A DNA stretch of 64,000 nucleotides from assembly GCA_019637335.1 (NCBI GenBank), contig JAHBVV010000001.1, forward strand, positions 377,440 through 441,439. The letters are read 5' to 3'. A program made the position numbers and the translations under genes. Shown in pieces: positions 3,301 to 48,859 of the stretch (within the stretch, counting starts at the first letter, position 1; each line of letters begins with the position of its first letter). Under the pieces are notes generated by a model that saw only the letters and a program-made list of their open reading frames with translations, was not told the origin of the DNA and searched no databases. The stretch is from Candidatus Hydrogenedentota bacterium. Its GTDB lineage: Bacteria > Hydrogenedentota > Hydrogenedentia > Hydrogenedentales > JAEUWI01.

Positions 3301-3506
3301 ACGCTGCCAGCCGGGTCATCGGCGGCGCGGCGCTTGCCGCGTGGGAGCCGATCCCGGCATGGTCTGAACGATCGGTCGCGGCCCCGGCCAGCCCCGCATG
3401 CGAGGCGGTCCGCTTCGCCATCGAGACCAATCATCCGGACGCGCGCGCCGCCCTGGACGATCCCGTGATCATCGCCATCCCTCCTCCGCCCGGCGGCGCG
3501 GATTAG
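339..3506 (+). CDS. Polytopic membrane protein with an O-antigen ligase/polymerase (Wzy_C-like) domain fused to a long C-terminal TPR/Sel1-like repeat domain
   Basis: About 12 predicted TM helices in the N-terminal 480 aa. The TRTRGSWLGLAVALALIAV motif is typical of the O-antigen ligase family. The C-terminal ~550 aa is rich in helical Ala/Leu/Arg repeats. The ORF track gives a 1055-aa frame. Confidence 0.6.
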   Translation: MALTEFVQMAGITHRRGAAVGAATLAAAGLAAVLAIALDLPWTQAGGLPLLVLGLYLVAFHTHAALCFIAFAITPFCVVQAEVLGVTLNLPEVLILALAAKEGVRLLRDGFTLPEALPHRTLAAFVAASVIAIATGFHHQNGAVRTLQDFRQFVEFLLLFGLVLRCVSGRDEAIRIAFCFALGGSLIALHGIMQQVAPLGVSPTQMSSDLRLYGAVRSASFYGPTPLGGLMVLAIGPAAGVLLASKRRSIQWIMAACILLCLVTIVLTRTRGSWLGLAVALALIAVSIRPSGKTLFAAAGAGIVLAFLLGPVVLQRLYTLADPVQDVSLMARAQYYAAAAHIGRAHPVLGLGWGCFYDIDTILNAERYVPVTMEEVAAREAEEAAERRAFSDPGEDAPPEPAEVEEATVHSAYLQLFVKTGLLGVLTFLAIIVVWVERIWRGRNTRFQSDSGHALFIGITASVAGYLFHSTFENFFQWPVMAQSFWLLFGLSFMLAPRPEGVRPGYGVPLAFVCSASAVFLLFMAACLRMETLHPGHYERNVTNALDEGDLEKAIRIARRATEVGPREPMPYTVHARLLFLRGDDEAALAELDKAFGPKIYPNKPRFEYTTARYYFAPARLLLGRHHAERDDWDEARQQFELARAYADLRADEFAEFHPLLYQAYASAGNWFRALDFGAPDADELAGLDGASLVNLARAAETRGAWALLERVASAIQTRDGLAEQAGYFLGRARLAQGKPAEAVEPLKEAADAGLPDAHYHLGRALAETGQTEAAVAAFRATPPHDIHHAVALAEAWGLLPENDAAAAELRAGLMEAVRRMRQLPPAPGEDAATPALLAYVLPGGGMLPERFPMLLLWGDSSGALDRLTGVSVARDADGCTVQLEGTGLLLEVRTVENLAVWAAIEHAGETDEIPAGWIDTAREWFALTDRPAGAVTREPDGNLAMDVNGTAWIYSAPARIPEGALCLVSARLRDPAGAARYGLQQIDAASRVIGGAALAAWEPIPAWSERSVAAPASPACEAVRFAIETNHPDARAALDDPVIIAIPPPPGGAD

Positions 3507-3574
3507 TTTTGGGGTAATTCTTTGGCCGTACGAAGTAGCGTCAAGTCTTAGAAGTAGCGCCAAGTCTTAATTGC

Positions 3575-3800
3575 CATCCCGCGATACTACGACGAGCGTT
3601 TACAAGGCTGGGAGCGCAAGCGCGTGCACCGGAGGTGCATGGAGCGTTCGTAATATCAGCACATTTGATCGGGAGGAAGACTGGACCCGGAGCACCGCCG
3701 TTGATCAGATTCGCGCCTCCGGCGCGATGCGGGCGGGCCGCCCGCGCTCCCATTCGTCCGCACTTCCGTTGCGGCGCGGGATTGTATCGTCGAGGAATCG
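3575..3800. repeat. Family-A ~230-bp dispersed element with conserved hairpins (copies also at 170-290 and 61030-61270)
   Basis: Shared core is gatactacgacgag...ggctgggagcgca.gcg...tgcaccggaggtgcatgg...gactggacccgga...attcgcgcc(tcc/ttc/gtc)ggcgcgatgcgggcgggccgcccgcgctcccatt.gtccgcacttccgttg. Hairpins tgcacc-gga-ggtgca and cgcgcc-NNN-ggcgcg are conserved, with loop-only variation. Confidence 0.7.
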
Positions 3801-3834
3801 AGCCAGCTTCATTCGGCTATAGAATTACCAAACT

Positions 3835-3965
3835 TCCAGCCCGAGCCGAGCGCCATCCGAGCCACAGGGAATATTGAAAAGGGCGCGTGTTGGATCGCTG
3901 GCGTTTCGCCCGCGGGCGAATCCCGGATCTTGGCGGCAGAGATGCCGGCGCTCCATCACGATCAC
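3835..3965. repeat. Family-B dispersed repeat (aaaagggcgcgtgttggatcgctgg..tttcgcccgcgggcgaatcccgga.cttg.cggcagagatgccggcgctcca), second copy at 25842-25965
   Basis: Direct comparison of the two loci shows about 85% identity over ~120 bp. Both copies lie upstream of + strand genes (acs and the ABC ATPase). Confidence 0.7.
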
Positions 3966-4225
3966 GCACATTGATTCAAGGCTCCAAATCAACTCAAGTT
4001 TACGCCCCAATGCCGGGATCGGGTTTAAATGCGAAGAGGCCCTGGTCCCCCGCGCTCCCGACATTGAATCCGCCCGCAAATTGTGTACAATAAACGGCTT
4101 AGTATCAGGCAAACACCCCGGCGCACCGTTTCCACATCATCCCGATTGATGCATCATGCGCCGGGCCGGAACGAGACCGCCCGCGCACCGCCCTTCCGGC
4201 GCCGCGCGGCGCACGGAGGAGAAGT

Positions 4226-6181
<1,956 letters not shown>

Positions 6182-6477
6182 TACCGTACGAAAACAAAAT
6201 CGGCGTGGCCGCCCCGATGTCCTCGGGGCGGCCACGCCGTCTTTTTATTGTCAGGATCCACTGGCCTTTCGCGGCCTGTGGGTTTCGGAATACCGCGACC
6301 CTGTTCCGTGAATTTCACGACCCGGTATTTCCAAATCTGCCTTATCCAAACCAAGTTGCCACCAGTCCAGGTAAGGAAGCGTCAAAGGCTGGGAGCGCAG
6401 GTCGAAGACGCGCCGTGGTGGGCGTCCCCGCCTGCCAGGCGGCGAAGCCGCCGTCCGTTATCATCCGTAATGGGTCG

Positions 6478-6900
6478 GGGGTACAGACGTCTGCGATTTT
6501 GGGGTGGTTGGTTGCCTGGCGCGCGACGGGACAGCCGCGCCGGTTGGCGGTGTTGTGGGTTGGTTGGGCTCGCTTTCGGTCGCGTGCGGGCTGTTGCTAC
6601 CTGAGGTGATGGGGCGCCGCAGTCCCTGGGGCGGGTGCGTGTTGCGCGGGGGGCGTTTTTCTGCGGGTACAGGCACCCGCGATTCTGGGGTGGTTTGGGG
6701 CGCTTTCGCGGCTGGGGTGGTTTTTGTCGCGGGCTCCAGTCCCCCTGGGGCACCCGCGATTCTGGGGTGGTTTGGGGCACTTTCGCGGCGTGGGTGGTTT
6801 TTGTCGCGGGCTCCAGTCCCCCTGGGGCACCCGCGATTTGGGGGGGGTGGGGCGCTTTCGCGGCTGGGGTGGTTGGCGTCGCGGGAGCCAGTCCCCATGG
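6478..6900. repeat. Tandem array of a ~77-bp unit (family C: cacccgcgattctggggtggtttggggcgctttcgcggctggggtggtttttgtcgcgggctccagtccccctgggg), 3 clean units plus 1-2 degenerate units
   Basis: Direct read. Related copies lie at 44262-44300, 45215-45400 (2 units), 45520-45590, 45738-45815 and 53111-53195. Confidence 0.85.
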
Positions 6901-7137
6901 TTGCAGTTGTGGTTTTAGAAAGTTGTCCGGCGCCGGACTTGTGCGGGTGATTGGCGGTTTTAACCTTGGGTCAGACAATCGACGCGCGGGGGTGTCTGGC
7001 AGTATCGTGGTGCGGAATAGCCGGCATACGCCCAGTGGTAATCCGCCAGTACAGAGCCCGCGTCTGAACGTTGAAAGGGGACGAGGTGGCAAACGCGATC
7101 GAAGTTTCCCCGTCAATCACCTACTTATAGGGATGGG

Positions 7138-7560
7138 GCGTTGCACTTTTTTAGGCTTTAGGCTTTAGGCTTTAGGCTGGAGGCTGGAGGCTTTAGGCTT
7201 TAGGCTGGAGGCTTTAGGCTTTAGGCTGGAGGCTTTAGGCTTTAGGCTGGAGGCTTTAGGGCACGGTCAAGCTACCGCGCGGCTGGGGCCGCGCCGCTTG
7301 GCCGTGGCACACCTGGAGGGGGCGGGGGCAGTTGACAGTTGACAGTTGACAGTTGACAGTTGACAGTTGACGGTTGACGGTTGACGAGTCACGGTTGACG
7401 GTTGACGGTTGACGGCTGGGACGGCTGGGACGGCTGGTAGGGCTGGGACGGCTGGTAGGGGAAGGACCTGTGGGACGGACCAAAAGGACGGCGGGGAGGG
7501 CGGGAGGGCGGGGAGGGCGGGAGGGCGGGGAGGGCGGGACGGCAGGGAGGTGGATGAGGA
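7138..7560. repeat. Cluster of four different microsatellites: the ggctttagg/ggctggagg 9-mer, the cagttga/cggttga 7-mer, the ggctgggac/ggctggtag 9-mer, and the ggcgggga/gggcggga array
   Basis: Direct read. 7141-7260 carries about 13 units, 7332-7418 about 12 units, 7418-7464 5 units, and 7490-7548 about 8 units. Confidence 0.9.
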
Positions 7561-8010
7561 GGCGATCGTGTTTCAGATCCGCTGGCAGCGGGAGCGCTGA
7601 TGTCTCCAGGAAGTGAATTGGCGGCGCCGGCGTTCATGACGCGTAGCGTCACCCGTTAGGGATGAAAAGCCGGCGGCTTCGCGACCGGTGCACAGCCGGG
7701 ACGGCTGTGCAACGTTCTTTGCACGCTTCACCTTGGTTTTTAAGAGTACCTTTAAAGGAATGTGGCGCAGGGGTCCCGCCTGTGTGTTTTCGGAGCAGCC
7801 ACCCCACATAACCCGCCTCCCTCTCTCCCACCACCGCCTCAGAAAAAATCCTTCAGATTCGTCGCATTCTCGATCGTCTCCCGTTTCGTGCGCAGAAACG
7901 CCAGAATAACCGCGCTCGCCGTCTGCGGCGTCTTGCTGACCGGGGAAATATGTTTCATGGATTGGCCTTTCCAGGGGCGCTGCCCCGCTGTCTCCTGTGG
8001 TTCCCGGGTA

Positions 8011-8388
8011 TTATGGGTCGTCACGCCGGACCGTTGCAATCGGCGCGCGCGCTTCGATCTCGTTCACCTTGGGCCTGCTGGCTTCCCGTATGGCGTCCAG
8101 CCGCGCCGACTTCCTTTCCCGGAGCTTGCGGCGGCGGCGGGGAAGCGCGAAAGCCGTAACCGCGCTCGCGGACAGTACAGTCAACCAGTAGGGCGATCCG
8201 GGAAAGGGGCTTAGAACAGTCACCAGGTAAGGGGGAGCAACCTGTTCCGCGGATGTCAACATTTGCGGCTCTCCCGTGAGGAACGCGATAGCCAGCAGCG
8301 TCAGCACGGGCAGCGTGACCGCCGCCGCCACGAAACAGATCAGGCGCACGGCCACCGCCGATACCACGGTCTCCCAGAATTTCGTCAT
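8011..8388 (-). CDS. Small hypothetical membrane protein, 125 aa with 2-3 TM helices
   Basis: ATG at 8386-8388 is preceded by GGAGG. The sequence MTKFWETVVSAVAVRLICFVAAAVTL is hydrophobic with a basic C-terminal tail. It is divergent from the NRAMP-like gene, with no family recognised. Confidence 0.3.
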   Translation of the reverse strand: MTKFWETVVSAVAVRLICFVAAAVTLPVLTLLAIAFLTGEPQMLTSAEQVAPPYLVTVLSPFPGSPYWLTVLSASAVTAFALPRRRRKLRERKSARLDAIREASRPKVNEIEARAPIATVRRDDP

Positions 8389-8503
8389 GTTGCCGCCTCC
8401 CGCCGGAATTTGGATACCTGCCAGAGCTTCCGATAAGCTTAGCACGTTTTTCGCGCGGCGCGCCCGCGCATGGGTCCAACCCGGGCAGGGAGAGAGCGCC
8501 AGT

Positions 8504-9916
8504 ATGGAAAACGAACAACACAAGACGCCCGCCGTCGCGGCGGCGCCGAAGGGGTGGATGCTCCTGCTGGCGCTGGGGCCGGGGCTGATGTGGTGTGGCG
8601 AGTATATCGGTTCGGGCGAGGTTATCCTCTCGACCCGCTCCGGGGCGATCTTTGGCGTGGCGGTGCTCTGGGTGCCGGTCATGGCCATCTTCGCGAAGTT
8701 TTGGATCGGCCTGGCGGGGGCGCACTACACCGTGACCACGGGCGAGGGCATGATCGACATGCTCGGGCGCATGCCCGGCCCGCGCAACTGGGTGCTCTGG
8801 CCGGTGTTCGCCGGGCAGGTCTGCGCCAGTATGATTTCCACCGCCGCGCTGGCCAGCGCATCGGGCGCCTTCGCGGCGTACTTCGTGCCCTGGGTCCGCC
8901 AGGAGATCTTCGCCTGGCTCTCGGTGCTTCTCGTTATCGCGGTGGTCTGGCGCGGGGGCTTCGAGCCGCTCAAACGCTTCATGTCGGTATTGGTGCTCAT
9001 GATTGTGGCTGGAACGGTTGCCGTGGCGCTGGCCACGTGGCCGGGCTTCAGCGCGATCGTCCACGGGCTCTTCGGTTTCGAGCTGCCCGAGACGCCGGCC
9101 TGGGCCAGCGGCGATGGCGGGTCCCCCTCGCCCTGGCTCGAAGTGCTCCCGCTGCTCGGCTGGGCGGCCGGTGGATTCGCCAGCCAGGTCTGGTACACCT
9201 ACTGGGTCCTCGGCGCGGGCTATGGCATGGCGCACGGGCGCGGCTACGGCAAGCCGCTGGACCCGGTACAGCTCCAGACCCTGGGCGCGGACGATGTGCG
9301 CCGAATCCGCGCCTGGCGCCGCGTGGTGACGCTCGATGCTTCCACGGCGCTGGTGGTGGGCACGTTGGTGACCATGGCCTTCATGATCGCGGGGGCGGGG
9401 GTACTCGGGCCGAAGCAACTCGCGCCCGATGGCGCCGAGGTCGCCCTCCAGCTCTCGCACCTCTTCAGCGAGCAGTGGGGGCGGGCCGGGGCGCATCTGT
9501 TTGTCCTGGCGGGCCTGGCGGGGATGCTGAGCACGATGATGGGCCAATTCGCCGGCTGGCCGCGGCTCCTGGCCGATTGCGCGCGGATCCTCTTCCCGGC
9601 GGTGAACCGTTGGGAGTGGAAGGTCCAGTTCCGATTCGCGCTTTTGTTCATCGCCGCATCCAACATGGTGATCGTCTACCAGTTGGGCCTCAAGCCGGTC
9701 TTCCTCGTAAAGATCGGCGCGGTTCTGGACGGCCTCCTGCTGACGCCGATCCAGGCCCTCGCCGTCGGCTGGGTGCTCTACAAGGTAATGCCGAAGTTCT
9801 TCGCGGAGGATCTCCGGCCGCTGGTCAAGCCCAGCCCCGTGCTGGCCGCAGGCCTTGCGCTGGCCTTCGTCTTGTTCAGTTTCGTGTGCGTATTTAAGTT
9901 GCGGGAATATTTTTAG
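8504..9916 (+). CDS. NRAMP/MntH-family-like divalent metal cation transporter, a distant member
   Basis: 470 aa and polytopic. The N-terminal LGPGLMWCGEYIGSGEVI resembles the NRAMP GPG...DPGN region, and the MLSTMMGQFAGW motif is present. An internal ATG at 8504 with a GGAGAG Shine-Dalgarno was chosen over the 8276 ORF start. Confidence 0.5.
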   Translation: MENEQHKTPAVAAAPKGWMLLLALGPGLMWCGEYIGSGEVILSTRSGAIFGVAVLWVPVMAIFAKFWIGLAGAHYTVTTGEGMIDMLGRMPGPRNWVLWPVFAGQVCASMISTAALASASGAFAAYFVPWVRQEIFAWLSVLLVIAVVWRGGFEPLKRFMSVLVLMIVAGTVAVALATWPGFSAIVHGLFGFELPETPAWASGDGGSPSPWLEVLPLLGWAAGGFASQVWYTYWVLGAGYGMAHGRGYGKPLDPVQLQTLGADDVRRIRAWRRVVTLDASTALVVGTLVTMAFMIAGAGVLGPKQLAPDGAEVALQLSHLFSEQWGRAGAHLFVLAGLAGMLSTMMGQFAGWPRLLADCARILFPAVNRWEWKVQFRFALLFIAASNMVIVYQLGLKPVFLVKIGAVLDGLLLTPIQALAVGWVLYKVMPKFFAEDLRPLVKPSPVLAAGLALAFVLFSFVCVFKLREYF

Positions 9917-10059
9917 GATCATCCGGTTTGAAGGTGCATCAGTAACGATGACCTCAAATTTGAGTTGATTGCTCGGTTCTCATTTCCGGGCGGCGACGCT
10001 ATGACCGGATACGTGATTCCCTGGACCTTGTCTGTAGTGCAGACGGTATATTCGGCGGC

Positions 10060-10315
10060 AGAACCGGGTGCCAATGCACTCTTTCGGCCCGAAGGGCCAA
10101 CGCAGTTTTCAGCCCTGGGCAACGCCCAGGGATTGAGCGGTGGGTTTCTTGTGCGCCCTGAAAGGGCAGCGCAGTTTAACTTCGGAAACGCTGGACTGGC
10201 ATAGCACTGCGCTGCCCTTTCAGGGCGGGGAAGGTGGCGTCCCCGTATTCCCCGGGCGTTGCCCGGGGCTGGGAGCTGCACTGGCCCTTCGGGCCGAAAG
10301 AGCAGTCGATACGAT
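10060..10315. repeat. Nested triple inverted-repeat (complex palindromic) element, possible structured RNA or MITE
   Basis: Three arm pairs are nested around a centre near 10190. Outer pair: ctctttcggcccgaagggcca (10080-10100) pairs with tggcccttcgggccgaaagag (10283-10303). Middle pair: gccctgggcaacgcccaggg pairs with ccccgggcgttgcccgggg. Inner pair: cgccctgaaagggcagcgcag pairs with ctgcgctgccctttcagggcg. Each arm is itself a local hairpin. Confidence 0.7.
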
Positions 10316-10471
10316 TTCACCAACAGAGGCCTAAACCGGCATACATTGGCGGTTCCGGATAATTGGGACACGGAGAAACGGCTATGAAAAATCCCGTACG
10401 CTCCAACCGGATGAGCCTATTTTTAGGCTGGTGGCTTGAGGCAGGTGGCTGCCGTCCCTGAGAGAAAAACC

Positions 10472-11512
10472 ATGAAAGCCCTGATCCTCGAAGACTACCG
10501 CCGTTTTGCCTACGCCACCGCGCCCGATCCCGCGCCCGGTCCGGGCGAAGTCCTCATCGCCGTGCAGGCCTGTGGCATCTGCGGCAGCGACGTCCACGGC
10601 ATGGACGGCAGCACCGGACGCCGCCGCCCGCCCATCATCATGGGCCACGAAGCCGCGGGAACCATCGCCGCCGTTGGGTCGGGCGTCGCCGCCTGGAAAC
10701 CCGGCGACCGCGTCACCTTCGACTCCACGATCTACTGCGGGACTTGCGCCTATTGCCGCCGCGGCCAGATCAACCTCTGCGACAACCGCCGCGTGTTGGG
10801 GGTCTCCTGTGAAGACTACCGGCAGCACGGCGCCTTCGCCGAATACGTCGCGGTCCCGCAGCACATTCTCTACCGGCTCCCCGGCGACCTGTCCTTCGAT
10901 CAGGCCGCCCTGGTCGAGCCGGTGTCCATCGCCTTCCACGCGATCAACCGCACGTCGATTTCGCTGAACGATTCGGCGATCGTCTTCGGCGCCGGCATGA
11001 TCGGACTCCTTGTTATCCAGGCGCTCCGGCTGGCCGGATGCGGCGTCATCATCGCCGTGGATCTGGAGGACAGCAAGCTGGCCCTCGCGAAACAGCTCGG
11101 CGCGGACCACGCTTTCAACGCCGCCGACCCGCAGTTGTCCGCGCGCGTGCTCGATCTCACCGGCGGCCAGGGCGCGGACCACGCTCTCGAATGCGTCGGT
11201 ATCGGCGCGACCGTGTCCGCCGCCTTTCAGTGCGTGCGCAAGGGCGGGTCGATAACGCTCGTCGGCAACCTGTCCCCCCGCATCGACTTCCCCCTGCAGG
11301 CCGCTGTTACGCGCGAAATCACCCTCAACGGCGTCTGCGCGTCCCAGGGCGAATACCCCGCCTGCCTCGACATGATCGCGCGCGGCGCCATCGACGTGAA
11401 ACCCCTGATGAGCGCCGTCGCGCCGCTGTCCGAAGGCGCCGCCTGGTTCGAACGCCTCTACAACAAGGAGCCGGGTTTGATGAAGGTGGTGCTGGCGCCG
11501 GATGGCGCTTGA
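10472..11512 (+). CDS. Zn-dependent medium-chain alcohol, sorbitol or threonine dehydrogenase family oxidoreductase
   Basis: The GHEAAG catalytic-Zn motif is present, with a CGTCAYC structural Zn Cys cluster and a GAGMIGLLVIQ Rossmann motif. Start is at MKALILEDY. Confidence 0.8.
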   Translation: MKALILEDYRRFAYATAPDPAPGPGEVLIAVQACGICGSDVHGMDGSTGRRRPPIIMGHEAAGTIAAVGSGVAAWKPGDRVTFDSTIYCGTCAYCRRGQINLCDNRRVLGVSCEDYRQHGAFAEYVAVPQHILYRLPGDLSFDQAALVEPVSIAFHAINRTSISLNDSAIVFGAGMIGLLVIQALRLAGCGVIIAVDLEDSKLALAKQLGADHAFNAADPQLSARVLDLTGGQGADHALECVGIGATVSAAFQCVRKGGSITLVGNLSPRIDFPLQAAVTREITLNGVCASQGEYPACLDMIARGAIDVKPLMSAVAPLSEGAAWFERLYNKEPGLMKVVLAPDGA

Positions 11513-12290
11513 CGAGGATTTGAATCGCGAATGGACGCGAATGGACACAGGGCAGCCTCTGGCCGCAACCAAAGAAATGATCACCACGAAGGGCACGAAG
11601 GGCACGAAGAAAAACAGAGAATAGCTTTAACCGCAGAGAACGCAGAGAGCGCATAGGGTGATTTCTGTTACGCAGATGGATTGGGTCGATGATCGAGAGC
11701 GCATTCTTAACCACGAATGAACACCAATGCACACGAATGCATCGGGAGCAGCCGCGGGCGGTGATCAAGAATTGTGCCCACGGATTGCACTGATGACACG
11801 GATTGAAAATAGAAGATGATTTCGGTTGTTGGGGTGTGCAGGCGACTGCGTGCTCTTTCCAAGGCAGCCTGATCGGATTGTTCAGCATCGGAATTGTAGC
11901 GGGGTTGATCGGGTGGCGGGCTACTTCTTCTCGTCTGGTTCGGGTGTCGCTTCAATCCGTGTCATCGGTGTAATCCGTGGGCAAGAAAAGAATTTCGACC
12001 ACGACACTGAACGGCCCGGAGATTCTCCCTGGGTTTTTCGCTTCGTAAATGCTTTTACAACAAACGTTTATATGGATTTTGAGCGAAAGAACTTGCAGAA
12101 AAAACAAGAAGTTGACGGATAGTAGTACGAAGGCCACGAAGAAAAGAAGTTGGAGAAGGAGTGCTATTAGCGCATAGGCGCAATTACGCAGATGAATTGG
12201 CGCACGCTTCAAAACTGCTTGAAGAGAGTGAACCACGAATTCACACGAATGGACACGAATGAAGATCTGAATTGAACGACGGCAATCCGG
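11513..12290. repeat. Modular word-repeat element, locus 1 (words CACGAAGG, CACGAATG, CGCAGAGAACGCAGAGAGCGCA, CACGGATTACAC)
   Basis: Shares long blocks with loci at 23.1, 33.2, 48.9 and 60.6 kb. An example block is gatcaccacgaagggcacgaaggccacgaaga...ttaaccgcagagaacgcagagagcgca. There is no ORF with protein-like composition. Confidence 0.75.
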
Positions 12291-14233: not shown

Positions 14234-14326
14234 GGGAGGGCTCCAGAAGTTTTGCGGTTGTTATAACCAATTATACGGTCTGGGGCGGGGCGATACAAGG
14301 CAGGGGTGGCGTAGCCCTGGACAGCC

Positions 14327-14400
14327 GGGACGGCAGAGACAACAGGGACAACAGGGACAACAGGGACAACAGGGACAACAGGGACAACAGGGACCCGCCT
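14327..14400. repeat. Tandem 9-mer microsatellite (gacaacagg) with about 7 units
   Basis: Direct read of the sequence: gacaacagggacaacagggacaacagg... Confidence 0.9.
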
Positions 14401-18354: not shown

Positions 18355-18626
18355 ACGCATCCAGTCATCGCGTTTGTCTCTATGTGGCCGGAGATAGCCC
18401 GAATTCGCGGCTTGCGCGGGCGAATCTGGCGGCGATCGCGGGCGAATCGTTTCCGGCGGGCTGGGAAGTGGAGGTGGTGGATGTGTTCGAGCACCCGGAC
18501 CGCGCATTGGCGGACGGGGTGCTGCTGACGCCGATGCTGGTGGCCGACCCCGGAAGCCGGGTCATTGGCACGCTGGCGGAAACCGCGGCGGTGCTTGCGG
18601 CGCTCGGGCTTGAGGGCTCCCGGTGA
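18351..18626 (+). CDS. kaiB: KaiB-like thioredoxin-fold protein
   Basis: 91 aa, with the KaiB signature LYVAGDSPNSRLARANL...LTPML. It is translationally coupled to kaiC and to the downstream kinase. Confidence 0.8.
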   Translation: MNASSHRVCLYVAGDSPNSRLARANLAAIAGESFPAGWEVEVVDVFEHPDRALADGVLLTPMLVADPGSRVIGTLAETAAVLAALGLEGSR

Positions 18627-21600
18627 TGGGCGGCGGCCCCGCGGGAGAAGATCGCGCCCTGGGCGAGGAACTCGCGCGGCTGGTTCAAACGCTGAGCGAG
18701 GCGCAGGCCCGCATTGTGGAGCTTGCGGGCGGCGAGCTGGACGGTGTGCTGGACGCGGCGGGCGCGCTGCACCTGCTTCCGGGTGCGCAGCGGCAGTTGC
18801 GGGAGAGCGAGCGCGCGGAGCGCGAATTCGCCGAGCAGCGGGCGGCGATCTTGAACGCGCTTCCCGCGCACATCGCGCTGCTGGACGCCGAGGGGCGCAT
18901 TATTGCGGTAAACCAATCCTGGAACCGATTTGCCGTGGCCAACGTACTGGCGGACGAGAATTTCTGCGTTGGGAAGAATTACCTTGAGGTATGCGAAGCG
19001 GCGCGGGGCGACTGCGCGGAGGAGGCGGCGGAGGCGGCGGCGGGGATCCGGGCGGTGCTTGCGGGGGACCTGGCGGAGTTTGCGCTGGAGTACCCGTGCC
19101 ATTCGCCGGATCAGAAGCGCTGGTTCCGCCTTATGGTGACGCCGATCCATCCGGGGGATCGGGCGGGCGTGGTGGTGATGCATGTGGACATCACGACGCG
19201 CAAGATGGCCGAGGAGGAATTGCGCGAGAGCGAGCGGCACTACCGGGAGTTGTTTGAGAGCAACCCGCAGCCGATGTGGGTTTTTGATCTCGACTCGCTT
19301 TGCTTCCTGGCCGTCAACGACGCCGCGATCGGGCATTACGGATATGCGCGGGACGAATTCCTGGCCATGACAATCGCGGATATTCGACCGGAGGAGGATG
19401 TGCCCGCATTGCGGGAAGTAGTTGAGACCGTCGGAAACGGTTTGAGCCGTGTCGGGATCTGGCGGCACCGCCTTCGGGACGGTCGGACGATCCTGGCGGA
19501 GGTTTCGGCGCACTCGCTCGTATTCGATGGGCGGCGGGCGGCGATGGTGCTGGCGATCGATATGACCGAGCGGATCCGGACGGAGGAGGCGCTTCGGGAA
19601 CGCGAGGCGTTGTTACGCCAGAGCGAGTCCATGCTGCGCATGGCCTCGTCGCTCAGCCGCCTGGGGGCCTGGGCGGTTGATCTGCCGGAATATAAACTAA
19701 CCTGGTCCGACGAGGTATGTGACATCCACGAAGTCCCCCGTGGCTACCAGGCACGGCTCGAGGAAGCGATCGACTTCTACGCGCCCGAGTACCACGAGGC
19801 AATCAGCCGTGCCTTCGTCCGCTGCGCGGAAACCGGGGCGCCCTTCGACCTCGAACTGGAGATCATCACCGCACGGGGCAACCGCGTATGGATCCGCACC
19901 ATCGGGGAGGCCGTGCGCGACGAGAACGGCCGCATTCAGCGCGTCCAGGGCGCGTTTCAGGACATTTCCGCCCGCAAGGCCGAAGAGCAGCGCAAGCGAA
20001 GCCTGGAAGAGCGCCTCGCGCGGACGCTGGAGAGCATCTCGGACGCATTTTTCGCGCTGGACCGGGAATGGCGCTTTACCTACTTGAACCAGGAGGCCGA
20101 GCGCGTATTGGAGCGTCCGCGGGAGGACTTGCTTGGCCGGGTCGTCTGGGACGAATTTCCCGAGGCCGTGGGAATGCGTTTTGAGCGGGAATACCGGCGC
20201 GCCGTGGATGAGCGGGTCTCCGTCTCTTTTGAAGAGTACTACCCGCCCCTCGAATGCTGGTTCAATGTTCGGGCGCACCCCTATGACGGCGGCCTTGCGG
20301 TGTACTTTGGCGACATTACGGAGGTGAAGGTCGCTCGGGAGCGGATCGAATTGGCGGAGCGGCGTTTCCGGGAGCTCGTGGCGCATGTTCACGATATTTT
20401 TTATGTTTACGAGCCGGACAGCGATGCGCTGCTTTACGTGAGCCCGGCGTTTGAGGACGTTTGGGGGGTTCCGTGCGCGCGGGCCTACGAGGCGCCCCGG
20501 GAGACGTATCTTGCGGCGATTCACGAGGATGATCGCGCTTTTGTGGAGGAAGTTTTTCCTAAGCAGATGCGGGGCGAGGCGCCCGAGGTGGAGTTTCGGA
20601 TCCGCCGGCCCGATGGCGATGTGCGCTGGATCCAGGAGTTTACGTACCCGGTGTATGGCGAGGGGGGCGCCATTGAGCGGGTAGTGGGGACGATGCGCGA
20701 CATCACGGAGCGCAAGCGCGCGGAACTTGATTTGCAGACGAGCGAGGAGCGGTTTCGGTTGCTTTCGCGGGCGACGAACGACGCCATCTGGGATTGGAAC
20801 CTGCTGACCAACGCGTTGTGGTGGAACGAAGGTTTCGAGGTGCTATTCGGGTTCAGCCGCGACGAAGTGGAGTCGACGATTGAATCGTGGACGAGCCGGA
20901 TCCACCCGGACGACCGGGACGCGATTGTAGGGCAGGTGGATAACGTGATTGCGGGCGCGGACGACTATTGGGACGGCGAGTACCGGTTTCTCCGAAAGGA
21001 TGGCAGTTACGCGCATGTGCTGGACCGGGGGTATATCATCCGGGATGATTCCGGACAGGGCGTTCGGATGATCGGCGGCATCACGGATCTTACGGAGCGG
21101 AAGGAGGCGGAACTGCGGCTTGCCGAACAGGCGGCGCTGCTGGACGAGGCGAGCGACGCGATTCTGGTGCGGGATTTGCACAACCGGGTGCTGTTCTGGA
21201 ACCGGCGTGCGGAGGAAATGTACGGCTGGTTCGAAGAAGAGGTGCTCGGGCGGAATGTCGGGGAGATTCTCGACAGCGATCCCGCGCTGCTTGAAGCGGC
21301 TACGGAGGCGGTGTTGCGGGATGGGGAATGGAGCGGGGAAGTTGAGCATAGGACAAAGGGGGGCAAAACGATCACCGTGCTTGCGCGGTGGACGCTGCTG
21401 CGGAATCCGGACGGGTCGCCGCGGTCGATCCTGGCGCTGAACGCGGACATCACGGAGCGGAAGCGGATGGAGGCACAGTTTCTGCGTAGCCAGCGGATGG
21501 AGAGCATCGGCACGCTGGCGGGCGGGATCGCGCACGATCTGAACAATATTCTGGCTCCCATTCTCATGTCGATCGAGATGTTGAAGGAGCAGGCGAGCGA

Positions 21601-23074
21601 CCCGGAGGCGCTGGGCGTGATCGAGACGCTTCAGGGCAGCGCGCAGCGGGGGGCGGATCTGGTGCGCCAGATTCTGGGCGTCGCGCGGGGTCTGGAGGGG
21701 CGGCGCATCCCGATCACCCCCGCGGCGATTGCGGAGGATGTCCGCCGTATTGCGCGGGATACGTTTCCGAGGAATATTGACTTCCGGCTGAACGTTCAGC
21801 CGGATCTCTGGCTGGTGCACGCGGATCCGACGCAGCTCCACCAGGTGATGATGAATTTGTGTGTGAACGCGCGGGATGCGATGCCGGAGGGGGGGCGGCT
21901 GAACCTGATTCTGAAGAACGCGATCGTGGACGAGGTGTTCGCGGGTATGAACAAGGAGTCGAAGCCGGGCCCGTACGTGATCGTGCGGGTCGAGGACAGC
22001 GGGTCCGGGATGACGCCGGAGGTGCAGGAGAAGATCTTTGAGCCCTTTTTCACGACGAAGGACATCGGGCGCGGTACGGGGCTCGGGCTTTCGACGACGT
22101 TTACGATCGTGAAGAATCACGGCGGTTTTATCCATCTGTACAGCGAGGTGGGGAAGGGTTCCCGGTTCAAGGTTTACCTGCCGGCGGTCACCACGGCGGA
22201 GACGCTCACGGAGGAAATTGTTGCGGCCAAGCCGGACCTCCCGCGGGGCAACGGAGAGCTTATTCTGCTGGTGGACGACGAGGAGAACATCCGTGATATC
22301 ACGCGGCGGGCGCTGGAGCGCTTCGGCTACCGGGTGATACTGGCGGAGAACGGGGCGGAGGGCGTATCGCTTTACGCGCAGCACCGGGGCGAGATCGCGG
22401 TGGTGCTTACGGACATGAGCATGCCGGTGATGGATGGTCCGGCGATGATCGTGGCCTTGAAGTCGATCGATCCGGCGGTCCGTATTATCGGGTCGAGCGG
22501 GCTCAACGCGAACGGGCACGTGGCGAAGGCGGCGGGCGCGGGGTTGGAGTATTTTGTGCCGAAGCCGTACACGGCGGAGGTTTTGCTTTCCACACTTCGG
22601 GCGGTGCTCCGGGGCGAAGGCGCGCCATCGCCGCCGACATTGCGGCCGGCCACGCCCGCGGCGCCGGTGGTGGCGGTCCGGCCCCGGGACGCGGCGGAGG
22701 ATCCGGCGGTATCCGCACGGATCCTGGTGGTTGAGGACGAGGGTCCGCTCGGGCTACTTGCGGTGCGGATATTGATGAAGGCGGGCCACGAGGCGGTGCA
22801 TGTGGAGTCGGGTGAATCGGCGCTGGATCTGCTTGCGGCGCGCGGGGGGGGCTTTGACATTGCGCTTACGGATATTCACATGCCGGGCATGGGCGGGGAA
22901 GCGTTTTACCGCGCGGCGGCGGAGCGTTACCCGGACTTGCGGTTCATCTTTGTGACGGGGGAAGGGCGGCTTCCCGAGGGGCTTGCGGGCGAGGGCGACG
23001 ACGCGCGGCTGCTGTCGAAGCCGTATACCGCGCAGCGGCTGAAGGACGCGATCCATGCGGCGATCCGGGGGTAG
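18623..23074 (+). CDS. Multi-PAS/PAC sensor hybrid histidine kinase with two receiver domains
   Basis: About 7 PAS/PAC repeats. HisKA H-box HDLNNILAPI and HATPase motifs DSGSGM and GTGLGL. Two REC domains are present (DDEENIR...DMSMP and VEDEG...DIHMPGM). The start is GTG 18623 or ATG 18626, overlapping the kaiB stop. Confidence 0.85.
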   Translation: MMGGGPAGEDRALGEELARLVQTLSEAQARIVELAGGELDGVLDAAGALHLLPGAQRQLRESERAEREFAEQRAAILNALPAHIALLDAEGRIIAVNQSWNRFAVANVLADENFCVGKNYLEVCEAARGDCAEEAAEAAAGIRAVLAGDLAEFALEYPCHSPDQKRWFRLMVTPIHPGDRAGVVVMHVDITTRKMAEEELRESERHYRELFESNPQPMWVFDLDSLCFLAVNDAAIGHYGYARDEFLAMTIADIRPEEDVPALREVVETVGNGLSRVGIWRHRLRDGRTILAEVSAHSLVFDGRRAAMVLAIDMTERIRTEEALREREALLRQSESMLRMASSLSRLGAWAVDLPEYKLTWSDEVCDIHEVPRGYQARLEEAIDFYAPEYHEAISRAFVRCAETGAPFDLELEIITARGNRVWIRTIGEAVRDENGRIQRVQGAFQDISARKAEEQRKRSLEERLARTLESISDAFFALDREWRFTYLNQEAERVLERPREDLLGRVVWDEFPEAVGMRFEREYRRAVDERVSVSFEEYYPPLECWFNVRAHPYDGGLAVYFGDITEVKVARERIELAERRFRELVAHVHDIFYVYEPDSDALLYVSPAFEDVWGVPCARAYEAPRETYLAAIHEDDRAFVEEVFPKQMRGEAPEVEFRIRRPDGDVRWIQEFTYPVYGEGGAIERVVGTMRDITERKRAELDLQTSEERFRLLSRATNDAIWDWNLLTNALWWNEGFEVLFGFSRDEVESTIESWTSRIHPDDRDAIVGQVDNVIAGADDYWDGEYRFLRKDGSYAHVLDRGYIIRDDSGQGVRMIGGITDLTERKEAELRLAEQAALLDEASDAILVRDLHNRVLFWNRRAEEMYGWFEEEVLGRNVGEILDSDPALLEAATEAVLRDGEWSGEVEHRTKGGKTITVLARWTLLRNPDGSPRSILALNADITERKRMEAQFLRSQRMESIGTLAGGIAHDLNNILAPILMSIEMLKEQASDPEALGVIETLQGSAQRGADLVRQILGVARGLEGRRIPITPAAIAEDVRRIARDTFPRNIDFRLNVQPDLWLVHADPTQLHQVMMNLCVNARDAMPEGGRLNLILKNAIVDEVFAGMNKESKPGPYVIVRVEDSGSGMTPEVQEKIFEPFFTTKDIGRGTGLGLSTTFTIVKNHGGFIHLYSEVGKGSRFKVYLPAVTTAETLTEEIVAAKPDLPRGNGELILLVDDEENIRDITRRALERFGYRVILAENGAEGVSLYAQHRGEIAVVLTDMSMPVMDGPAMIVALKSIDPAVRIIGSSGLNANGHVAKAAGAGLEYFVPKPYTAEVLLSTLRAVLRGEGAPSPPTLRPATPAAPVVAVRPRDAAEDPAVSARILVVEDEGPLGLLAVRILMKAGHEAVHVESGESALDLLAARGGGFDIALTDIHMPGMGGEAFYRAAAERYPDLRFIFVTGEGRLPEGLAGEGDDARLLSKPYTAQRLKDAIHAAIRG

Positions 23075-23900
23075 GGCGCGGGGCAGCCTGGGGCGCAACC
23101 AGGGAATTGATCACCACGAAGGGCACGAAGCCCACGAAGAAAAGCCGAGAGGAATTTTAACCGCAGAGAACGCAGAGAGCGCATACGTGGTGGGTGGGGG
23201 TACGCGGACGGATTGGGGTAATTGAATGGGGGCGCTTTTTAACCGCGAATGAACACGAATCAACGCGAATGCGCTGGGGGCAGCCTCTGGCCGGGGTCAG
23301 GAATTTTGACCACGGATTACACTGATGACACGGATAAAGGATCGAGCGGGTGGTTGTGGATTGCCGGGCGGCAGCGTGCGATTTTCGGGGCGGCCTGTTT
23401 GGGTTTTTCATCATCAGCATTGTAGCGGGGTTGATCGGTCGGCGGGCGGGAGCGGGACGCGGGGTTGCTGTGCGCGGGGGATTGAATTGGGAGCCACAGA
23501 GAGCACAGAGAACACAAAGAAAATGGAGCAGCAGCCGTTGGCCGCAATCGAAGAGGGTTCACCACGAAGGGGGCGAAGGGGGCGAAGGGAAACAGGGAAG
23601 AGTCGTTAACCGCAAAGAACGTAGAGAGCGCATAGGTGGTGGGTGGGGGTACGCGGACGGATTGGGGTGGTTGAATGGTGACGTTTTTTAACCGCGAATG
23701 AACACGAATCAATGCGAATGCGCTTGGAGCAGCCTCTGGCTGCGGTCGGGAATTTTGACCACGGATTACACTGATGACACGGATAAGAGAGGAATCGGGT
23801 CGTTGCGGGCGCCGGCGGCAGCGCGCGATTTTTTGAGTGATCTACTTGTTTTTTCACCATCAGCATTGTAGCGGGGTTAATCGGTCGGCGAGCGGCATCA
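23075..23900. repeat. Modular word-repeat element, locus 2, with an internal ~190-bp duplication (23160-23345 and 23606-23790)
   Basis: Same word modules as locus 1, for example ccgcagagaacgcagagagcgcata...ttttgaccacggattacactgatgacacggata. Confidence 0.75.
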
Positions 23901-25679
23901 GGAGGCGTTTTGTTGTTCCGCGGCCCGTTTCTTTTCGCAGAGGGCGATGATCTCCTCGGCGTGGATTGTGTTCTCCAGGACATAGGGCGCGGGCGCGCGG
24001 GCGAGAAAGGCGTTTGCCGCCGCAATGCCGTCGTCCCAGCGTTTCTGGTGGTAGTTCAGCCAGCCCTCGGTCATCAGGGCGGGGAGGTAATCGGGATCGA
24101 CGGATCGCGCGTGCTCCAGGTGGGTGCGGGCCTGTTCGTAGTCCTTTGACGCCATGAGACGCGCCGCCTCGGCGAGGCGGACGAGGGCGTTGTCCGGCGC
24201 GAGGTCCAGGGCCTCGGCGAGCAGGCGTTCTACATCCGGCTTGCCCTGTAAGCCAGGGTTGTGCGAGCGCGCGGCGAGCGCCATTGCGCGCAGGAGATCG
24301 TAGTCGTAGGGTTCTTCGAGGTCGGCGGTCACGAAGAAGGCGCCGGGATCGCGCTCGAAGAAGACGCGGGTCTGCGCGTCGTCCCGTGCGCGGGCAAGGT
24401 AGGCCAGGTACATGCCATTGATGAAGGGGTTGTCGGCCTGGATGGCGCGGGCCAGGTCGAGGAGTTCCTTTTCGCGGGGCGTTCCGATGATGCCGGGGTC
24501 GTCCGAATGCTCGACAAAGGCGTAGACGCGCCACCAGTGGTAGGTGTAGACGTTGATAAATCCCCGCACGCTTGGATGGCGCATACCGAGGCGCTCGAAA
24601 CAGTCGACCGCCATGGCCAGGTCGTCCACGTCCAGGGCGAAGCGCGCGGCGCGACCGAGGAGATAGGGCTCGTCCGGGTTCAGCATCAACTGCGCTCTCA
24701 AGCCCTCGACCAGCCGTTGCCGTATTGGGTCGCTATCGGGGCCTTCCTCATAATCGGGGCCCCGGTCGCGCATCCAGCGCGCCGCGTCTCGGAGGAGCGT
24801 CAACAGATAGGGAAAGTCCCCGGCGGCCTGCTCAAATTCGGCCACGAGCGCATCGACCTTCTTCCAGTCGCCGAACCACTGGGGCAGGGAGTAGTTCAAG
24901 AGTGTGTTGCGCACGTGGAGGTGGTGCGGGTTCAGCGCCAGGGTCTCGTCGTGGTATTTCTGAATCGCGGCGAGTTTCTTGCCGACGCCGGCGGCGGCCC
25001 GGGCCATGGACGCTGGAATCTCCGGGTCTTCCTGGTTCAGTTTGCGCGCGGCGTTGAGGTCGGCCCAGGCGAGTTTGTGGTACTTTCGGTACCCTTCCCA
25101 CCCCTCCTCGGTAACTTTGTGGGCGAAGTCCGTTCCACGGTATTTCCAGGCGATGGAAACGTAAACGCGACCCCGCACCAGCAGCGGAAGGTAGGATCCC
25201 GACGATGCCGCTATCCATTCATCGAGCACGGAGAGCAGCTGCGGGTATTCTTCGTCCTTGAGAACGCGACCCAGGCTGTTGATCAGGCTACTGTAGCGGT
25301 AGCGGTCGAAGGGGGTGTCCTGTTTCGCGCGGAGGGCTGCGATGTCTTCCTCGACGGCGGCGAAGTCTTTTTCGTAGTACAGGCGGTTGCGCGTGTCCGG
25401 CAGCAGATATACGGTCTCGTAGTGGTCATGCAGGCCGAGTTTTGCGGTCAGGGCTTCTTGCTCGCGCCGGCCCTCCTCGCGTTTCCTTTCGCGGCGTTCG
25501 GCCTCGGCGGCGTCTTCTTCCGCGTCCTCGGGGGAGTCTTCGGCGCCCCAGCTCGGGTGATCGTTTATTTCACTCAGGAGCGTGGTGAATGCGAAGTAGC
25601 TGGCGGCGCCCATGAGCACCAGGGAAAAAAGAGCCCCCGCGAGGCCCGCGATCAACCATTTGATGCTTATTGGATTCAT
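23898..25679 (-). CDS. Membrane-anchored hypothetical protein with a helical-repeat (TPR-like) body, possibly of the DUF4034 type
   Basis: N-terminal TM helix IKWLIAGLAGALFSLVLMGAASYF followed by an acidic ED-rich linker. The body is 593 aa and alpha-helical. No catalytic motif was recognised. Confidence 0.45.
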   Translation of the reverse strand: MNPISIKWLIAGLAGALFSLVLMGAASYFAFTTLLSEINDHPSWGAEDSPEDAEEDAAEAERRERKREEGRREQEALTAKLGLHDHYETVYLLPDTRNRLYYEKDFAAVEEDIAALRAKQDTPFDRYRYSSLINSLGRVLKDEEYPQLLSVLDEWIAASSGSYLPLLVRGRVYVSIAWKYRGTDFAHKVTEEGWEGYRKYHKLAWADLNAARKLNQEDPEIPASMARAAAGVGKKLAAIQKYHDETLALNPHHLHVRNTLLNYSLPQWFGDWKKVDALVAEFEQAAGDFPYLLTLLRDAARWMRDRGPDYEEGPDSDPIRQRLVEGLRAQLMLNPDEPYLLGRAARFALDVDDLAMAVDCFERLGMRHPSVRGFINVYTYHWWRVYAFVEHSDDPGIIGTPREKELLDLARAIQADNPFINGMYLAYLARARDDAQTRVFFERDPGAFFVTADLEEPYDYDLLRAMALAARSHNPGLQGKPDVERLLAEALDLAPDNALVRLAEAARLMASKDYEQARTHLEHARSVDPDYLPALMTEGWLNYHQKRWDDGIAAANAFLARAPAPYVLENTIHAEEIIALCEKKRAAEQQNAS

Positions 25680-34360: not shown

Positions 34361-35097
34361 GTTGAACCGCGAATTAACGCGAAAGGACACGAATGAAGAA
34401 AGGATGGTCTCGCTTTGGGAATTCGCGGCGGTATTCACGGCATCAATGGGCCGTTCGAACCCGGCGCTCACGCTGTCTCGGGCTGGAAGCCCAAGCCACG
34501 TTGGCGCGGGTGGAACGATTTGGGTTGTTTGTGGCGGCGCGACGGCTGTGTCGAAAATGGGCCGGAGCATTGTGTGGCGTGGGTTGGGTTGGGGCTTGAC
34601 GTGTGTGGAATCCGGGGTTGCGACAGGGGGAGTATGGGCTTTTGGGAACCTGGGGTTGATTTGCCGCAGACAGGAATGTCCGCGATCCTCGCCTGCGGCG
34701 CTTGGACAGCCGGGACGCCTATCCTACATTTGCGCCTGGCGGCGCTGAACACAGCCGGGACGGCTGTGCCACTTTCTTTTCGAGGTGGTTTTGGTGGGGT
34801 CAGGGGGAACTTTTTGGAGGCGGGCTCACTTTGCCGCAGACAGGAATGTCCGCGATCCATTGCGCCTGCGGCGCTTGGACAGCCGAGGCATGCATTCACA
34901 ACGGGGGGGCTCATTCCACTCGGGTGTTATGTTTTTTCAGAGGCGCCTATGCGGCTTTTCGCGCGCAGTAACCGTAAAGCCGTAAAAAATCAACGGAATA
35001 AATTTGTACTTGCATAATTATTCAATCTGCGCTACCATGGATTAACGAACAGTCAGGGCTGCGGCATTACAACGGGCGAGCGGGTATCGCCCCGGCT

Positions 35098-43183: not shown

Positions 43184-43198
43184 GAAGCGCGAGGGAGC

Positions 43199-48801: not shown

Positions 48802-48859
48802 CCGCGAATCGATAAAAGGTGCACGCCCCCGGGCCGCTGGCCCGGGGGTTTTTGTTTAG

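Follow-up and report, generated by a model that had tools for sequence, protein, structure and literature searches.

Several kinds of short repetitive DNA are known from bacterial genomes. In Coxiella and Leptospira, intervening sequences (IVSs) of 23S rRNA genes enclose an open reading frame (ORF), S23p, within a ~28-bp terminal stem that is cut by RNase III while the host RNA stays functional; these IVSs are regarded as selfish and horizontally transferred, and ORF-less versions exist (PMC4990558). TAACTGA repeats in Beggiatoaceae, Cyanobacteria and Bacteroidetes, and the heptamers of the cyanobacterial short tandemly repeated repetitive (STRR) sequences, place the same words in unrelated phyla (PMC4679880). 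Here we describe word triplets, units of three tandem 9-10-bp words, at five intergenic loci of a 64-kb stretch of the Candidatus Hydrogenedentota contig JAHBVV010000001.1 (positions 377,440 to 441,439; hereafter the window). The triplets form a dispersed non-coding repeat family that is inserted relative to related genomes, has a unit common to many phyla, and elsewhere brackets a nuclease gene. On balance, we favor the reading in which the five loci represent clustered, gene-less descendants of widespread selfish 'hairpin cassettes', spread and amplified by recombination at the words, and we hold with considerably more confidence the narrower claim that the word-triplet repeats are mobile and selfish rather than host-selected signals. 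The literature searchable to us contained no description of word-triplet repeats or their word strings.

Like ORF-bearing IVSs, the gene-bearing cassettes place a small ORF of unassigned function inside stem-forming inverted repeats, with arms of 26-32 nt. Unlike IVSs, they lie between protein-coding genes instead of in 23S helix 25 or 45, their cargo is a PD-(D/E)XK protein of the GxxExxY family rather than the four-helix-bundle S23p, and their arms consist of three tandem words common to many phyla; the loops in the window are non-coding. The units resemble repetitive extragenic palindromes (REPs) and their BIME and REPIN arrangements in being short, extragenic and high in copy, in occurring as singlets and inverted doublets without target duplication, and in forming mosaics with other motifs. 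However, a REP is a 20-40-nt imperfect palindrome with a GTAG or CGTC head, species-specific and partnered by a Y1 transposase, whereas the word unit has three direct words and no internal palindrome, crosses phyla, and has a PD-(D/E)XK gene alongside. Bacterial MITEs (miniature inverted-repeat transposable elements) such as Correia, ERIC and RUP are similarly non-autonomous, intergenic, variable between strains and bounded by inverted ends, but word-triplet pairs have neither target-site duplication nor a parent insertion sequence and spread across phyla. STRR and TAACTGA repeats share with the word unit identical short intergenic tandem words in unrelated phyla without a known transfer mechanism; they have a period of 7 and 2-43 copies without a fixed head, inverted pairing or an associated gene, in contrast to the period of 9-10, exactly 3 copies, ACC head, inverted pairs and nuclease cargo of the word unit. 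Free-standing homing endonuclease genes offer a further likeness in genes and flanks: a small nuclease gene with flanks more conserved than the gene itself, present or absent at syntenic sites and seated in operons that include type I restriction-modification, although the flanks of the cassettes are repeated hundreds of times without the gene. Hairpin-forming selfish intergenic repeats are a known kind of element; the unusual features here are the three-word arm common to many phyla and the PD-(D/E)XK cargo.

Five loci share one composite

A sequence-only reading of this DNA had proposed that five intergenic loci are assembled from shared short modules, and both the loci and the quoted module strings were found where it had placed them. 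We searched the 64 kb with up to 3 mismatches and took 100 dinucleotide-preserving shuffles as the control. The CACGAAGG triplet (pattern ACCACGAAGGNCACGAAGGNCACGAAG) had 7 copies, and the CGCAGAGA (pattern AACCGCAGAGAACGCAGAGAGCGCA), CACGAATG and CACGGAT triplets had 10 copies each, compared with 0 in 100 shuffles for every one of them. All module matches fell within the five loci, which sum to ~4.9 kb, the total given before, and have lower GC content than the GC-rich window as a whole (~64%). More than ten direct-repeat families (D2-D6, D8-D12, D14, D17 and D20; repeat finder) tie the loci together, and Tandem Repeats Finder reported the 9- and 10-nt triplets as well as a 414-bp duplication.

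The same composite recurs in every locus, in one order and on one strand. It is 240-430 bp long and joins five arm word types head-to-tail with small GC hairpins and A-rich linkers. It opens with a GC hairpin (GGGCAGCC-nnn-GGCCGC) and an A-rich linker, followed by T1 (ACC + CACGAAGG x3), T2 (the CGCAGAGA triplet, AACC + GCAGAGA x3), T3 (the CACGAATG triplet, ACC + ACGAATGNAC x3, period 10), a second hairpin, T4 (the CACGGAT triplet, CC + ACGGATNAC x3) and a non-coding core of ~100 nt. Two continuations follow the core. Loci 1, 4 and 5 go on with an inverted T4 arm and the 'G' module, which is 135 nt long, and loci 2 and 3 with T5 (CACAAAGA x3), after which the series starts again. The features are as follows, with those of locus 4 given in the next section.

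Locus 1, 11513-12290, + strand: between convergent genes, ADH at 10436-11512 (+) and a minus-strand gene; one composite of partial CGCGAATG triplet, hairpin, T1, T2, T3, hairpin, T4, core, inverted T4, G module and T3.
T1 unit, 11583-11609, + strand: ACC + CACGAAGG x3; same 27-mer class at 23113, 33282, 48953, 49187, 49427 and 60627.
T2 unit, 11629-11653, + strand: also at 23159, 23608, 33519-33561 (5 words), 33951, 49233, 49474 and 60673.
T3 unit, 11710-11739, + strand: also at 12232, 23242, 23691, 33620, 34034, 34366, 49071, 49313, 49555, 50103 and 60704; inverted at 50417-50446.
Hairpin element of locus 1, 11778-11980, + strand: T4 arm (CCACGGATTGCACTGATGACACGGAT), about 150 nt of non-coding core, inverted T4 arm at 11955-11980.
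G module, 12011-12145, + strand: ttcgtaaatgcttttacaaca...cttgcagaaaaaacaagaa..tgacggatagtagt; also at 49853-49987 and 61324-61458 (family D14).
Locus 2, 23075-23900, + strand: between the convergent genes of a PAS histidine kinase at 18623-23074 (+) and a TPR protein at 23898-25679 (-).
Duplication in locus 2, 23157-23359 and 23606-23808: 449 bp, 89% identical, giving two composites.
Locus 3, 33165-34395, + strand: downstream of an HtrA-like gene at 32057-33157 (+), ending in the T3 unit at 34366-34394.
Repeat in locus 3, 33537-34329: composite period 414-432, 94% matches.
T5 units of locus 3: GCCACAAAGAGCGCAAAGAACACAAAG at 33407, 33839 and 34253.
Locus 5, 60590-61450, + strand: between minus-strand genes at 59875-60378 and 61465-62019, antisense to both; one composite, T1-T2-T3-hairpin-T4-core-inverted T4-G.
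Hairpin element of locus 5, 60780-60975, + strand: T4 arm, core, inverted T4 arm.

The window holds ~44 units, about 40 of them on the + strand, and each almost always consists of exactly three words at a period of 9 or 10 after an (A/G)ACC head. The stuttered 8-10-mers described in the sequence-only reading are words in a fixed number and not a loose stutter. Its view that modules vary in order and copy number between loci held for copy number alone; order was identical throughout, and truncation was the other thing that varied. With its fixed order and exactly three words per unit, the family is not a plain satellite, one of the classes suggested. The placement between convergent or tandem gene ends stood (convergent for loci 1 and 2, tandem for loci 3-5), with the qualification that the locus 5 units are antisense to both neighbors.

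Copy number is set by tandem duplications of 242-449 bp, which bear out the local duplications reported earlier: 449 bp in locus 2, period 414-432 in locus 3 (414 at 33537-34329), and 242 bp x3 in locus 4 (48908-49635). Copying has brought the composite to five or more intergenic sites of this genome, where it was then amplified. In loci 1 and 4 the series starts at one junction within a T3-type triplet (...GAATGNACAC joined to AGGGCAGCC), and a T3 unit closes loci 1, 3 and 4, the product that would be expected of recombination between T3 units.

The loci are non-coding, as had been thought: none of the ten ORFs that overlie them had a Pfam match. Two candidates for function in the core were rejected. 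A small membrane peptide (..LFGLFSIGIVAGLIGWR) had no family match and its copies differ by single-base indels, and a covarying hairpin failed since its candidate base pairs are broken in several copies. With Rfam 15, a tRNA-Arg alone reached the gathering threshold in the window, and the loci had no match even at E up to 5; the window also had no rRNA. No transposase, whether Y1_Tnp or DDE type, was found among ~30 large ORFs scanned in the window, in keeping with the earlier remark that none is nearby. An assembly artefact or a decayed protein-coding gene, the two outcomes named beforehand as fatal to a repeat family, could be suspected because the source is a metagenome-assembled genome (MAG) and long ORFs cross the loci. 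We give this almost no credence. Copies diverge from one another by 5-35% and so are not collapsed reads, and a cultured isolate and long-read contigs >1 Mb from other genomes carry the same units (see below). The sole peptide-like stretch is interrupted by single-base indels, and the loci had neither a Pfam match nor a remnant of the GxxExxY gene.

Locus 4 is an insertion relative to syntenic relatives

Locus 4 lies between the genes for PPDK and an FHA/GAF kinase, and includes the first of two MITEs nested within the loci.

Locus 4, 48859-50491, + strand: ~1.6-kb insertion between the PPDK terminator at 48825-48849 and the promoter-like site at 50519-50547 of the FHA-GAF kinase gene.
Bounds of locus 4: 8-bp direct repeat GAAAATCG at 48859-66 and 50484-91, with an internal copy at 50058-65.
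Inverted ends of locus 4, 48867-48918 and 50432-50483: begin GTAAC.
Tandem array of locus 4, 48908-49635, + strand: 242-bp unit x3, hairpin-T1-T2-T3-hairpin-partial T4; its junctions (...ACAC joined to AGGGCAGCC) are identical to the junction at 11546 in locus 1.
Hairpin element of locus 4, 49620-49821, + strand: 32-nt arms, 97% complementary, 138-nt loop.
Nested MITE 1, 50066-50483: 418 bp, 70-nt inverted ends, flanked by the 8-bp target duplication GAAAATCG.
Nested MITE 2, 60991-61297: ends GTAACACGTCAGCC... and GTAACACTTTAGCGG..., target duplication GAAATACC (8 bp, GAATACC-type); splits the G module of locus 5.

Three relatives retain the synteny from PPDK to the FHA/GAF kinase at 87-94% PPDK identity. 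The spacer between the two genes is 197 bp in one relative (L122) and 580 bp in another (L123), compared with 1751 bp in the window; the PPDK terminator and the kinase promoter-like site are conserved on both sides of the insert, which is absent from the syntenic relatives. Locus 4 is therefore an insertion relative to them. No word-triplet units were found in 32 kb of the relatives' DNA, versus about 44 in the window, which indicates that the family expanded recently in the window lineage. L123 carries a different, unrelated insert of ~400 bp (3560-3900) at the same PPDK/kinase intergenic site, apparently a hot spot for insertions.

The inverted repeats and target duplications that had been proposed as a check exist in part: those with target duplications belong to the two nested MITEs, and inverted CACGGAT arms of 32 nt are present in loci 1, 4 and 5. 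The MITE at 50066-50483 (end sequences GTAAATCTTTGGCC / GTAACAGTTTGGCC) has a GTAA..TTTGGCCGT.TGAAG tip at each end with a T3 (CACGAATG) unit 36 nt further in, and with the MITE at 60991-61297 it forms a family with ends GTAAC..TTTRGCCGT.TGAAG. Both have GTAA ends and an 8-bp target duplication, features that we take to be IS66-like from the ISfinder criteria. The two are unrelated to the word-triplet repeat and would be passengers. A third related copy lies at ~3511-3846 (repeat family D16), with no target duplication evident there.

Word triplets are common to many phyla

We scanned genome and metagenome collections for the unit. All counts from these scans are lower bounds, the genome scan covered one genome per species, and its phylum labels are the record titles of MAGs. 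An exact scan with ACCACGAAGGNCACGAAGG returned at least 120 genome stretches with titles from about a dozen phyla: Acidobacteriota, Planctomycetota (including the cultured strain JC640), Verrucomicrobiota, Kiritimatiellia, Lentisphaerae, Chloroflexota, Desulfobacterota, Gemmatimonadota, Nitrospirota, Sumerlaeota, Spirochaetota, Bacteroidia and several Proteobacteria. Many of these stretches sit in long-read contigs >1 Mb, and a handful of matches were chance occurrences inside genes. The same pattern was present in 81 stretches of IMG/VR viral contigs, some with 4-7 copies; on one phage-like contig (L157) the units occupy the short spacers separating co-directional genes. The CACGGAT triplet was found in at least 120 metagenome stretches, on contigs with GC content of 0.36-0.69.

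The unit has a strict grammar. Among the fetched loci, 118 of 131 tandem arrays had exactly three words. The consensus is an A-rich tract, a TT(A/C)ACC (TTMACC) head and three words with one free base between them; the arm is ~30 bp, with 9-10-bp words that read CACGAAGGN, CGCAGAGAN, CACGAATGNA, CACGGATNA or CACAAAGAN. Units occur as singlets or as inverted pairs with the ACC heads outward (52 vs 6), and for CACGGAT-type pairs this orientation was without exception (30 vs 0; loops 3-104 nt). The free base was complementary between arms in 26 of 62 pairs, where 22.8 are expected by chance, and arms of unlike word types also form pairs (L118, L119), from which we conclude that the words are conserved as sequence and not as base pairs. 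In two Acidobacteriota genomes that are ~82% identical, orthologous units share their position and differ by roughly the same amount as the sequences flanking them, and another unit is present in one genome only.

Flanking sequence was less uniform. A conserved GC hairpin upstream was not a general property of the units (11% vs 4% in shuffles) and was equally frequent downstream. A module of a small hairpin (GCGGC-nnn-GCCGC), AAYCAAA and a ~10-nt linker precedes the triplet in L120, L083, L014, L146, L303 and L316, as well as at 11550-11582 of the window; these represent several distant lineages, so a flanking module is shared too, though it is not universal. An IMG/VR contig (L148, 3300038701_003367) holds from ~3500 to 10900 a satellite of ~84-bp period, with two GC hairpins and GCCACAGAGGGCGCAGAGGG words in many copies, which is a tandem-array form of the word-triplet grammar in another organism.

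These data bear on three accounts in which the units are something other than derivatives of selfish hairpin cassettes. The first holds that they are host-selected RNA elements, such as terminators, 3'-end protectors or RNase III sites, with single arms bound by protein (Shine-Dalgarno-like GAAGG/GGA) and the nuclease gene a passenger in the loop. In the window, the two T4 arms, one of them inverted and with the core in between, make up a hairpin (32-nt arms, 97% complementary), and the RNA fold of 49612-49830 reaches -110 kcal/mol (z = -7.7). Many pairs elsewhere have an A-rich tract upstream and a T-rich one downstream like bidirectional terminators, units lie inside operons and in short co-directional spacers such as those of the phage-like contig, and the 28-bp stems of 23S IVSs are RNase III substrates (PMC4990558). 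Yet the orientation of units to neighboring genes was unbiased, at 24 sense and 20 antisense, and divergent spacers were occupied too; this count used crude ORF-based gene calls that wrongly scored 99 units as coding. Pairing at the free position is not maintained, the directly oriented part of the composite has no unusual fold (z = -1.1), the loci have no Rfam match, promoter and terminator scans were at chance level, and locus 4 sits between a terminator and a promoter. The account also leaves identical words across phyla unexplained, and we regard it as unlikely.

A second account treats the units as binding arrays for a conserved host DNA-binding protein (multimeric ribbon-helix-helix, MraZ-like, or strand-polar guides of the FtsK/SpoIIIE type) with the word as the site and three sites to a unit. 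Conservation as sequence rather than pairs and the number fixed at three are what it would predict, and the composites in the window all lie on the G-rich strand in a region of positive GC skew (positive from ~6 to 64 kb, most of the window). The purine-rich 8-mers of the units resemble KOPS/SRS motifs. However, we found no candidate for such a protein, word types of several distinct kinds occur together, the units elsewhere are mostly inverted pairs and hence not polar, close relatives have no units, and a 9-bp period would not hold successive sites to one helix face. We consider such arrays less likely still. As to strand, five loci are too few to tell chance (1 in 16) from a replication-linked bias. 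Several consensus motifs compared by eye, namely CsrA (GGA), Rho rut (YC every 9 nt), sigma-54 (GG-N10-GC), the RNA polymerase pause consensus, the hammerhead CUGAUGA, attC R boxes, DnaA and MraZ boxes, were set aside because each fitted one word type only or had the wrong spacing.

The third account makes them REP/REPIN-like elements moved by a REP-associated tyrosine transposase (RAYT) or IS200-type enzyme, or classical MITEs of DDE insertion sequences. Extragenic position, high copy number, inverted doublets and singlets without target duplication, and the two true MITEs with 8-bp duplications inside the loci all recall such elements. Nevertheless, the units lack both a palindromic structure and a GTAG or CGTC head, no Y1 or DDE transposase was found in the window, and a look at inverted pairs spaced 0.5-4.5 kb apart turned up no insertion sequence with word-triplet ends that could be the parent. 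Around 81 inverted pairs we found no target-site duplication, the flanks extending the palindrome instead, so these are not classical DDE-type MITEs. The RAYT gene found in one genome with word triplets (L326) has GTAG hairpins of its own. This account appears very improbable, and of the classes put forward in the sequence-only reading what survives is the dispersed non-coding repeat family, not the plain satellite, the REP/RAYT system or the classical MITE. The RAYT in question (L326, 15050-15900; NF047646, 97.9 bits) has hairpins with GTAG heads (GGTAGGGGCGATTG...CAATCGCCC) on either side, a classical REP system beside word triplets in one Udaeobacter genome, and its REPs are a separate family.

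Word triplets bracket a nuclease gene

Several CACGGAT loci had a common downstream ORF. In the cassettes an arm is followed after ~10 nt by an ORF of 123-149 aa and, 10-30 nt beyond it, by the inverted arm. The ORF encodes a GxxExxY protein, scoring 119-123 bits against TIGR04256 (cut-off 35) and 112-120 bits against PF13366, PDDEXK_3 (cut-off 22). Arms of 26-32 nt surround such ORFs in L206, L234, L255, L258, L270 and L325-L332. This family is a candidate for the cognate protein that the sequence-only reading had suggested looking for, being bracketed by inverted word pairs in other genomes.

A profile built from the cassette proteins gave 18 six-frame matches in ~15 loci, and with a single exception these have word units no more than 150 nt away; four of the 18 adjoin CACGAAGG-type arms. 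Because this first sample had been chosen by the repeat, we drew a second by the protein: seven GxxExxY proteins from two protein searches were located on their contigs, which gave 11 genes. Word triplets lay within 120 nt on both sides of 10 of these genes and on one side of the eleventh. With the strict three-word pattern, 11 of 20 gene ends were within 120 nt of a unit compared with 4.4% of background positions (P ~1e-10).

Arms are more conserved than their cargo: they are 24-26/26 identical between cassettes whose proteins share only 31-46% identity. Cassette polarity is mixed, with heads outward in nine and inward in five, and the inward-facing L331, L332 and L334 carry an identical protein. 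In several unrelated contigs, type I restriction operons carry a cassette with heads inward between their hsdS and hsdR genes; these are L329 (3001-3372), the L331/L332/L334 lineage and L333. In syntenic Udaeobacter regions, L325 has a cassette between pilM and an amuc_1100-like gene, and the same site in L326 is occupied by a hairpin that has CACGAATG arms and no gene, together with what is left of the CACGGAT arm; presence/absence and the exchange of arm types therefore happen at syntenic sites. Inverted pairs 0.2-4.5 kb apart enclose either GxxExxY or ordinary genes (Hfq-like, DinB), and none enclosed a transposase in ~2.3 Mb of fetched loci. A search for S23p four-helix-bundle cargo with a consensus sequence gave no match, an uninformative result.

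The GxxExxY family is large, with 9,240 clusters at 50% identity (E up to 1e-3). A published survey lists PDDEXK_3 with function 'unknown' and 'multiple transfers, mixed clades' across divisions (PMC3424549). In the cassette proteins, E27, D66 and K78 are invariant and the E...D...(D/E)xK pattern is kept, and an AlphaFold2 model (pLDDT 90.9) has a minimal PD-(D/E)XK core. A sequence search of the PDB with GxxExxY gave no match, and in the literature we found passing mentions of the family only.

A proposed route of spread

In the model we favor, that of selfish hairpin cassettes and their gene-less derivatives, the words would act as a sequence-specific recognition code and double as stretches of homology at which copies spread or expand through recombination or gene conversion. 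The ...ACAC/AGGGCAGCC junction in two loci and the 242-449-bp tandem duplications fit recombination at the words. In gene-bearing relatives the nuclease may make a DNA break in trans or in cis, by analogy with homing endonucleases, and would drive the spread of the arms. Where transcribed, inverted arms could fold into stems of at least ~27 bp, possible RNase III substrates as in 23S rRNA IVSs, and cutting of these stems would by the same analogy let insertions inside operons be tolerated. The window lacks a nuclease gene of its own, and the copies in it would thus be fossils or non-autonomous elements, having grown and spread through recombination at T3 and T4 words.

More tentatively, the triplets may represent a class of mobile element found across much of Bacteria and their phages. 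Its autonomous form, a gene for a ~125-aa PD-(D/E)XK nuclease (GxxExxY) with two arms of three 9-bp words, would be among the smallest known, the arms being the recognition code, conserved far beyond the nuclease, and gene-less copies colonizing intergenic DNA and operon spacers.

Several observations speak against the hairpin-cassette reading. The 64-kb window contains neither a GxxExxY gene nor a remnant of one, and insertion of a single word-triplet arm with clean junctions was not caught in the loci compared. Nearly all GxxExxY cassettes seen have CACGGAT-type arms, and the CACGAAGG, CGCAGAGA and CACGAATG types had cargo just four times or never, so that a different partner is possible for them. 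Genes are found with either polarity of the arms, unlike the prediction of a simple terminal-inverted-repeat model. In the window, single, directly oriented arms with an unremarkable fold make up most of the units, and the part of the model that concerns hairpins and RNase III therefore covers the T4 pairs only. For the proposed nuclease activity, the nearest structural neighbors of the modelled protein, Cas4 and lambda-exonuclease-like enzymes, are weak (E above 1e-3), and we know of no activity established for any GxxExxY protein.

If the hairpin-cassette reading holds, the five loci mark a recent invasion of the source genome, absent in close relatives, and identical 27-bp arms across phyla around proteins of 31-46% identity would point to a recognition code. 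GxxExxY/PDDEXK_3 would gain a testable substrate, DNA or RNA with three 9-bp words (e.g. CCACGGATTACACGGATGACACGGAT), and a function would be assigned to a family of >9,000 50%-identity clusters now annotated as unknown. A nuclease that reads the words could be a compact, programmable DNA-recognition module; were a host factor to read them instead, it would be new and conserved across phyla. For annotation, an abundant source of spurious 'hypothetical proteins' (such as TTKGTKGTK and LRSLRSLR) and of broken contigs in genomes from soil and sediment would receive a name and a grammar and could be masked by pipelines.

Other repeats and features of the window

The window also contains repeats that are distinct from the word triplets. 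An intergenic stretch of ~400 bp at 7136-7550 consists of tandem words, (TTTAGGC/TGGAGGC)n, (CAGTTGA/CGGTTGA)n, (GACGGCTGG)n and (GGGAGGGC)n, and a separate array, (GGACAACAG)x8, lies at 14319-14394. The heptamer arrays at 7150-7415 fit the cyanobacterial STRR family, which the array at 14319-14394 resembles too. Similar stutter arrays flank word-triplet units in other phyla (L003, L033, L077 and L112).

Repeats of 77-87 nt, GGCACCCGCGATTCTGGGGTGGTT...GTCGCGGG..CAGTCCCC, make up a second family, which is GC-rich, unrelated to the word triplets and both tandem and dispersed (6665-6903, 44263-44303, 45220-45393, 45488-45574, 45725-45811 and 53111-53197) and lies partly in minus-strand ORFs that have no Pfam match. 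A low-GC patch at 42000-44000 (0.52-0.56) adjoins tRNA-Arg(TCT) at 43886-43962 (-) and holds a 354-aa ORF (42119-43183) without a Pfam match; it may be a small integrated island. Lastly, a 15-bp tandem repeat of ~23 copies at 31656-32002 lies inside a DUF4340/extensin-like ORF (29794-32046), where it is coding, rich in proline and alanine, and separate from the five loci.

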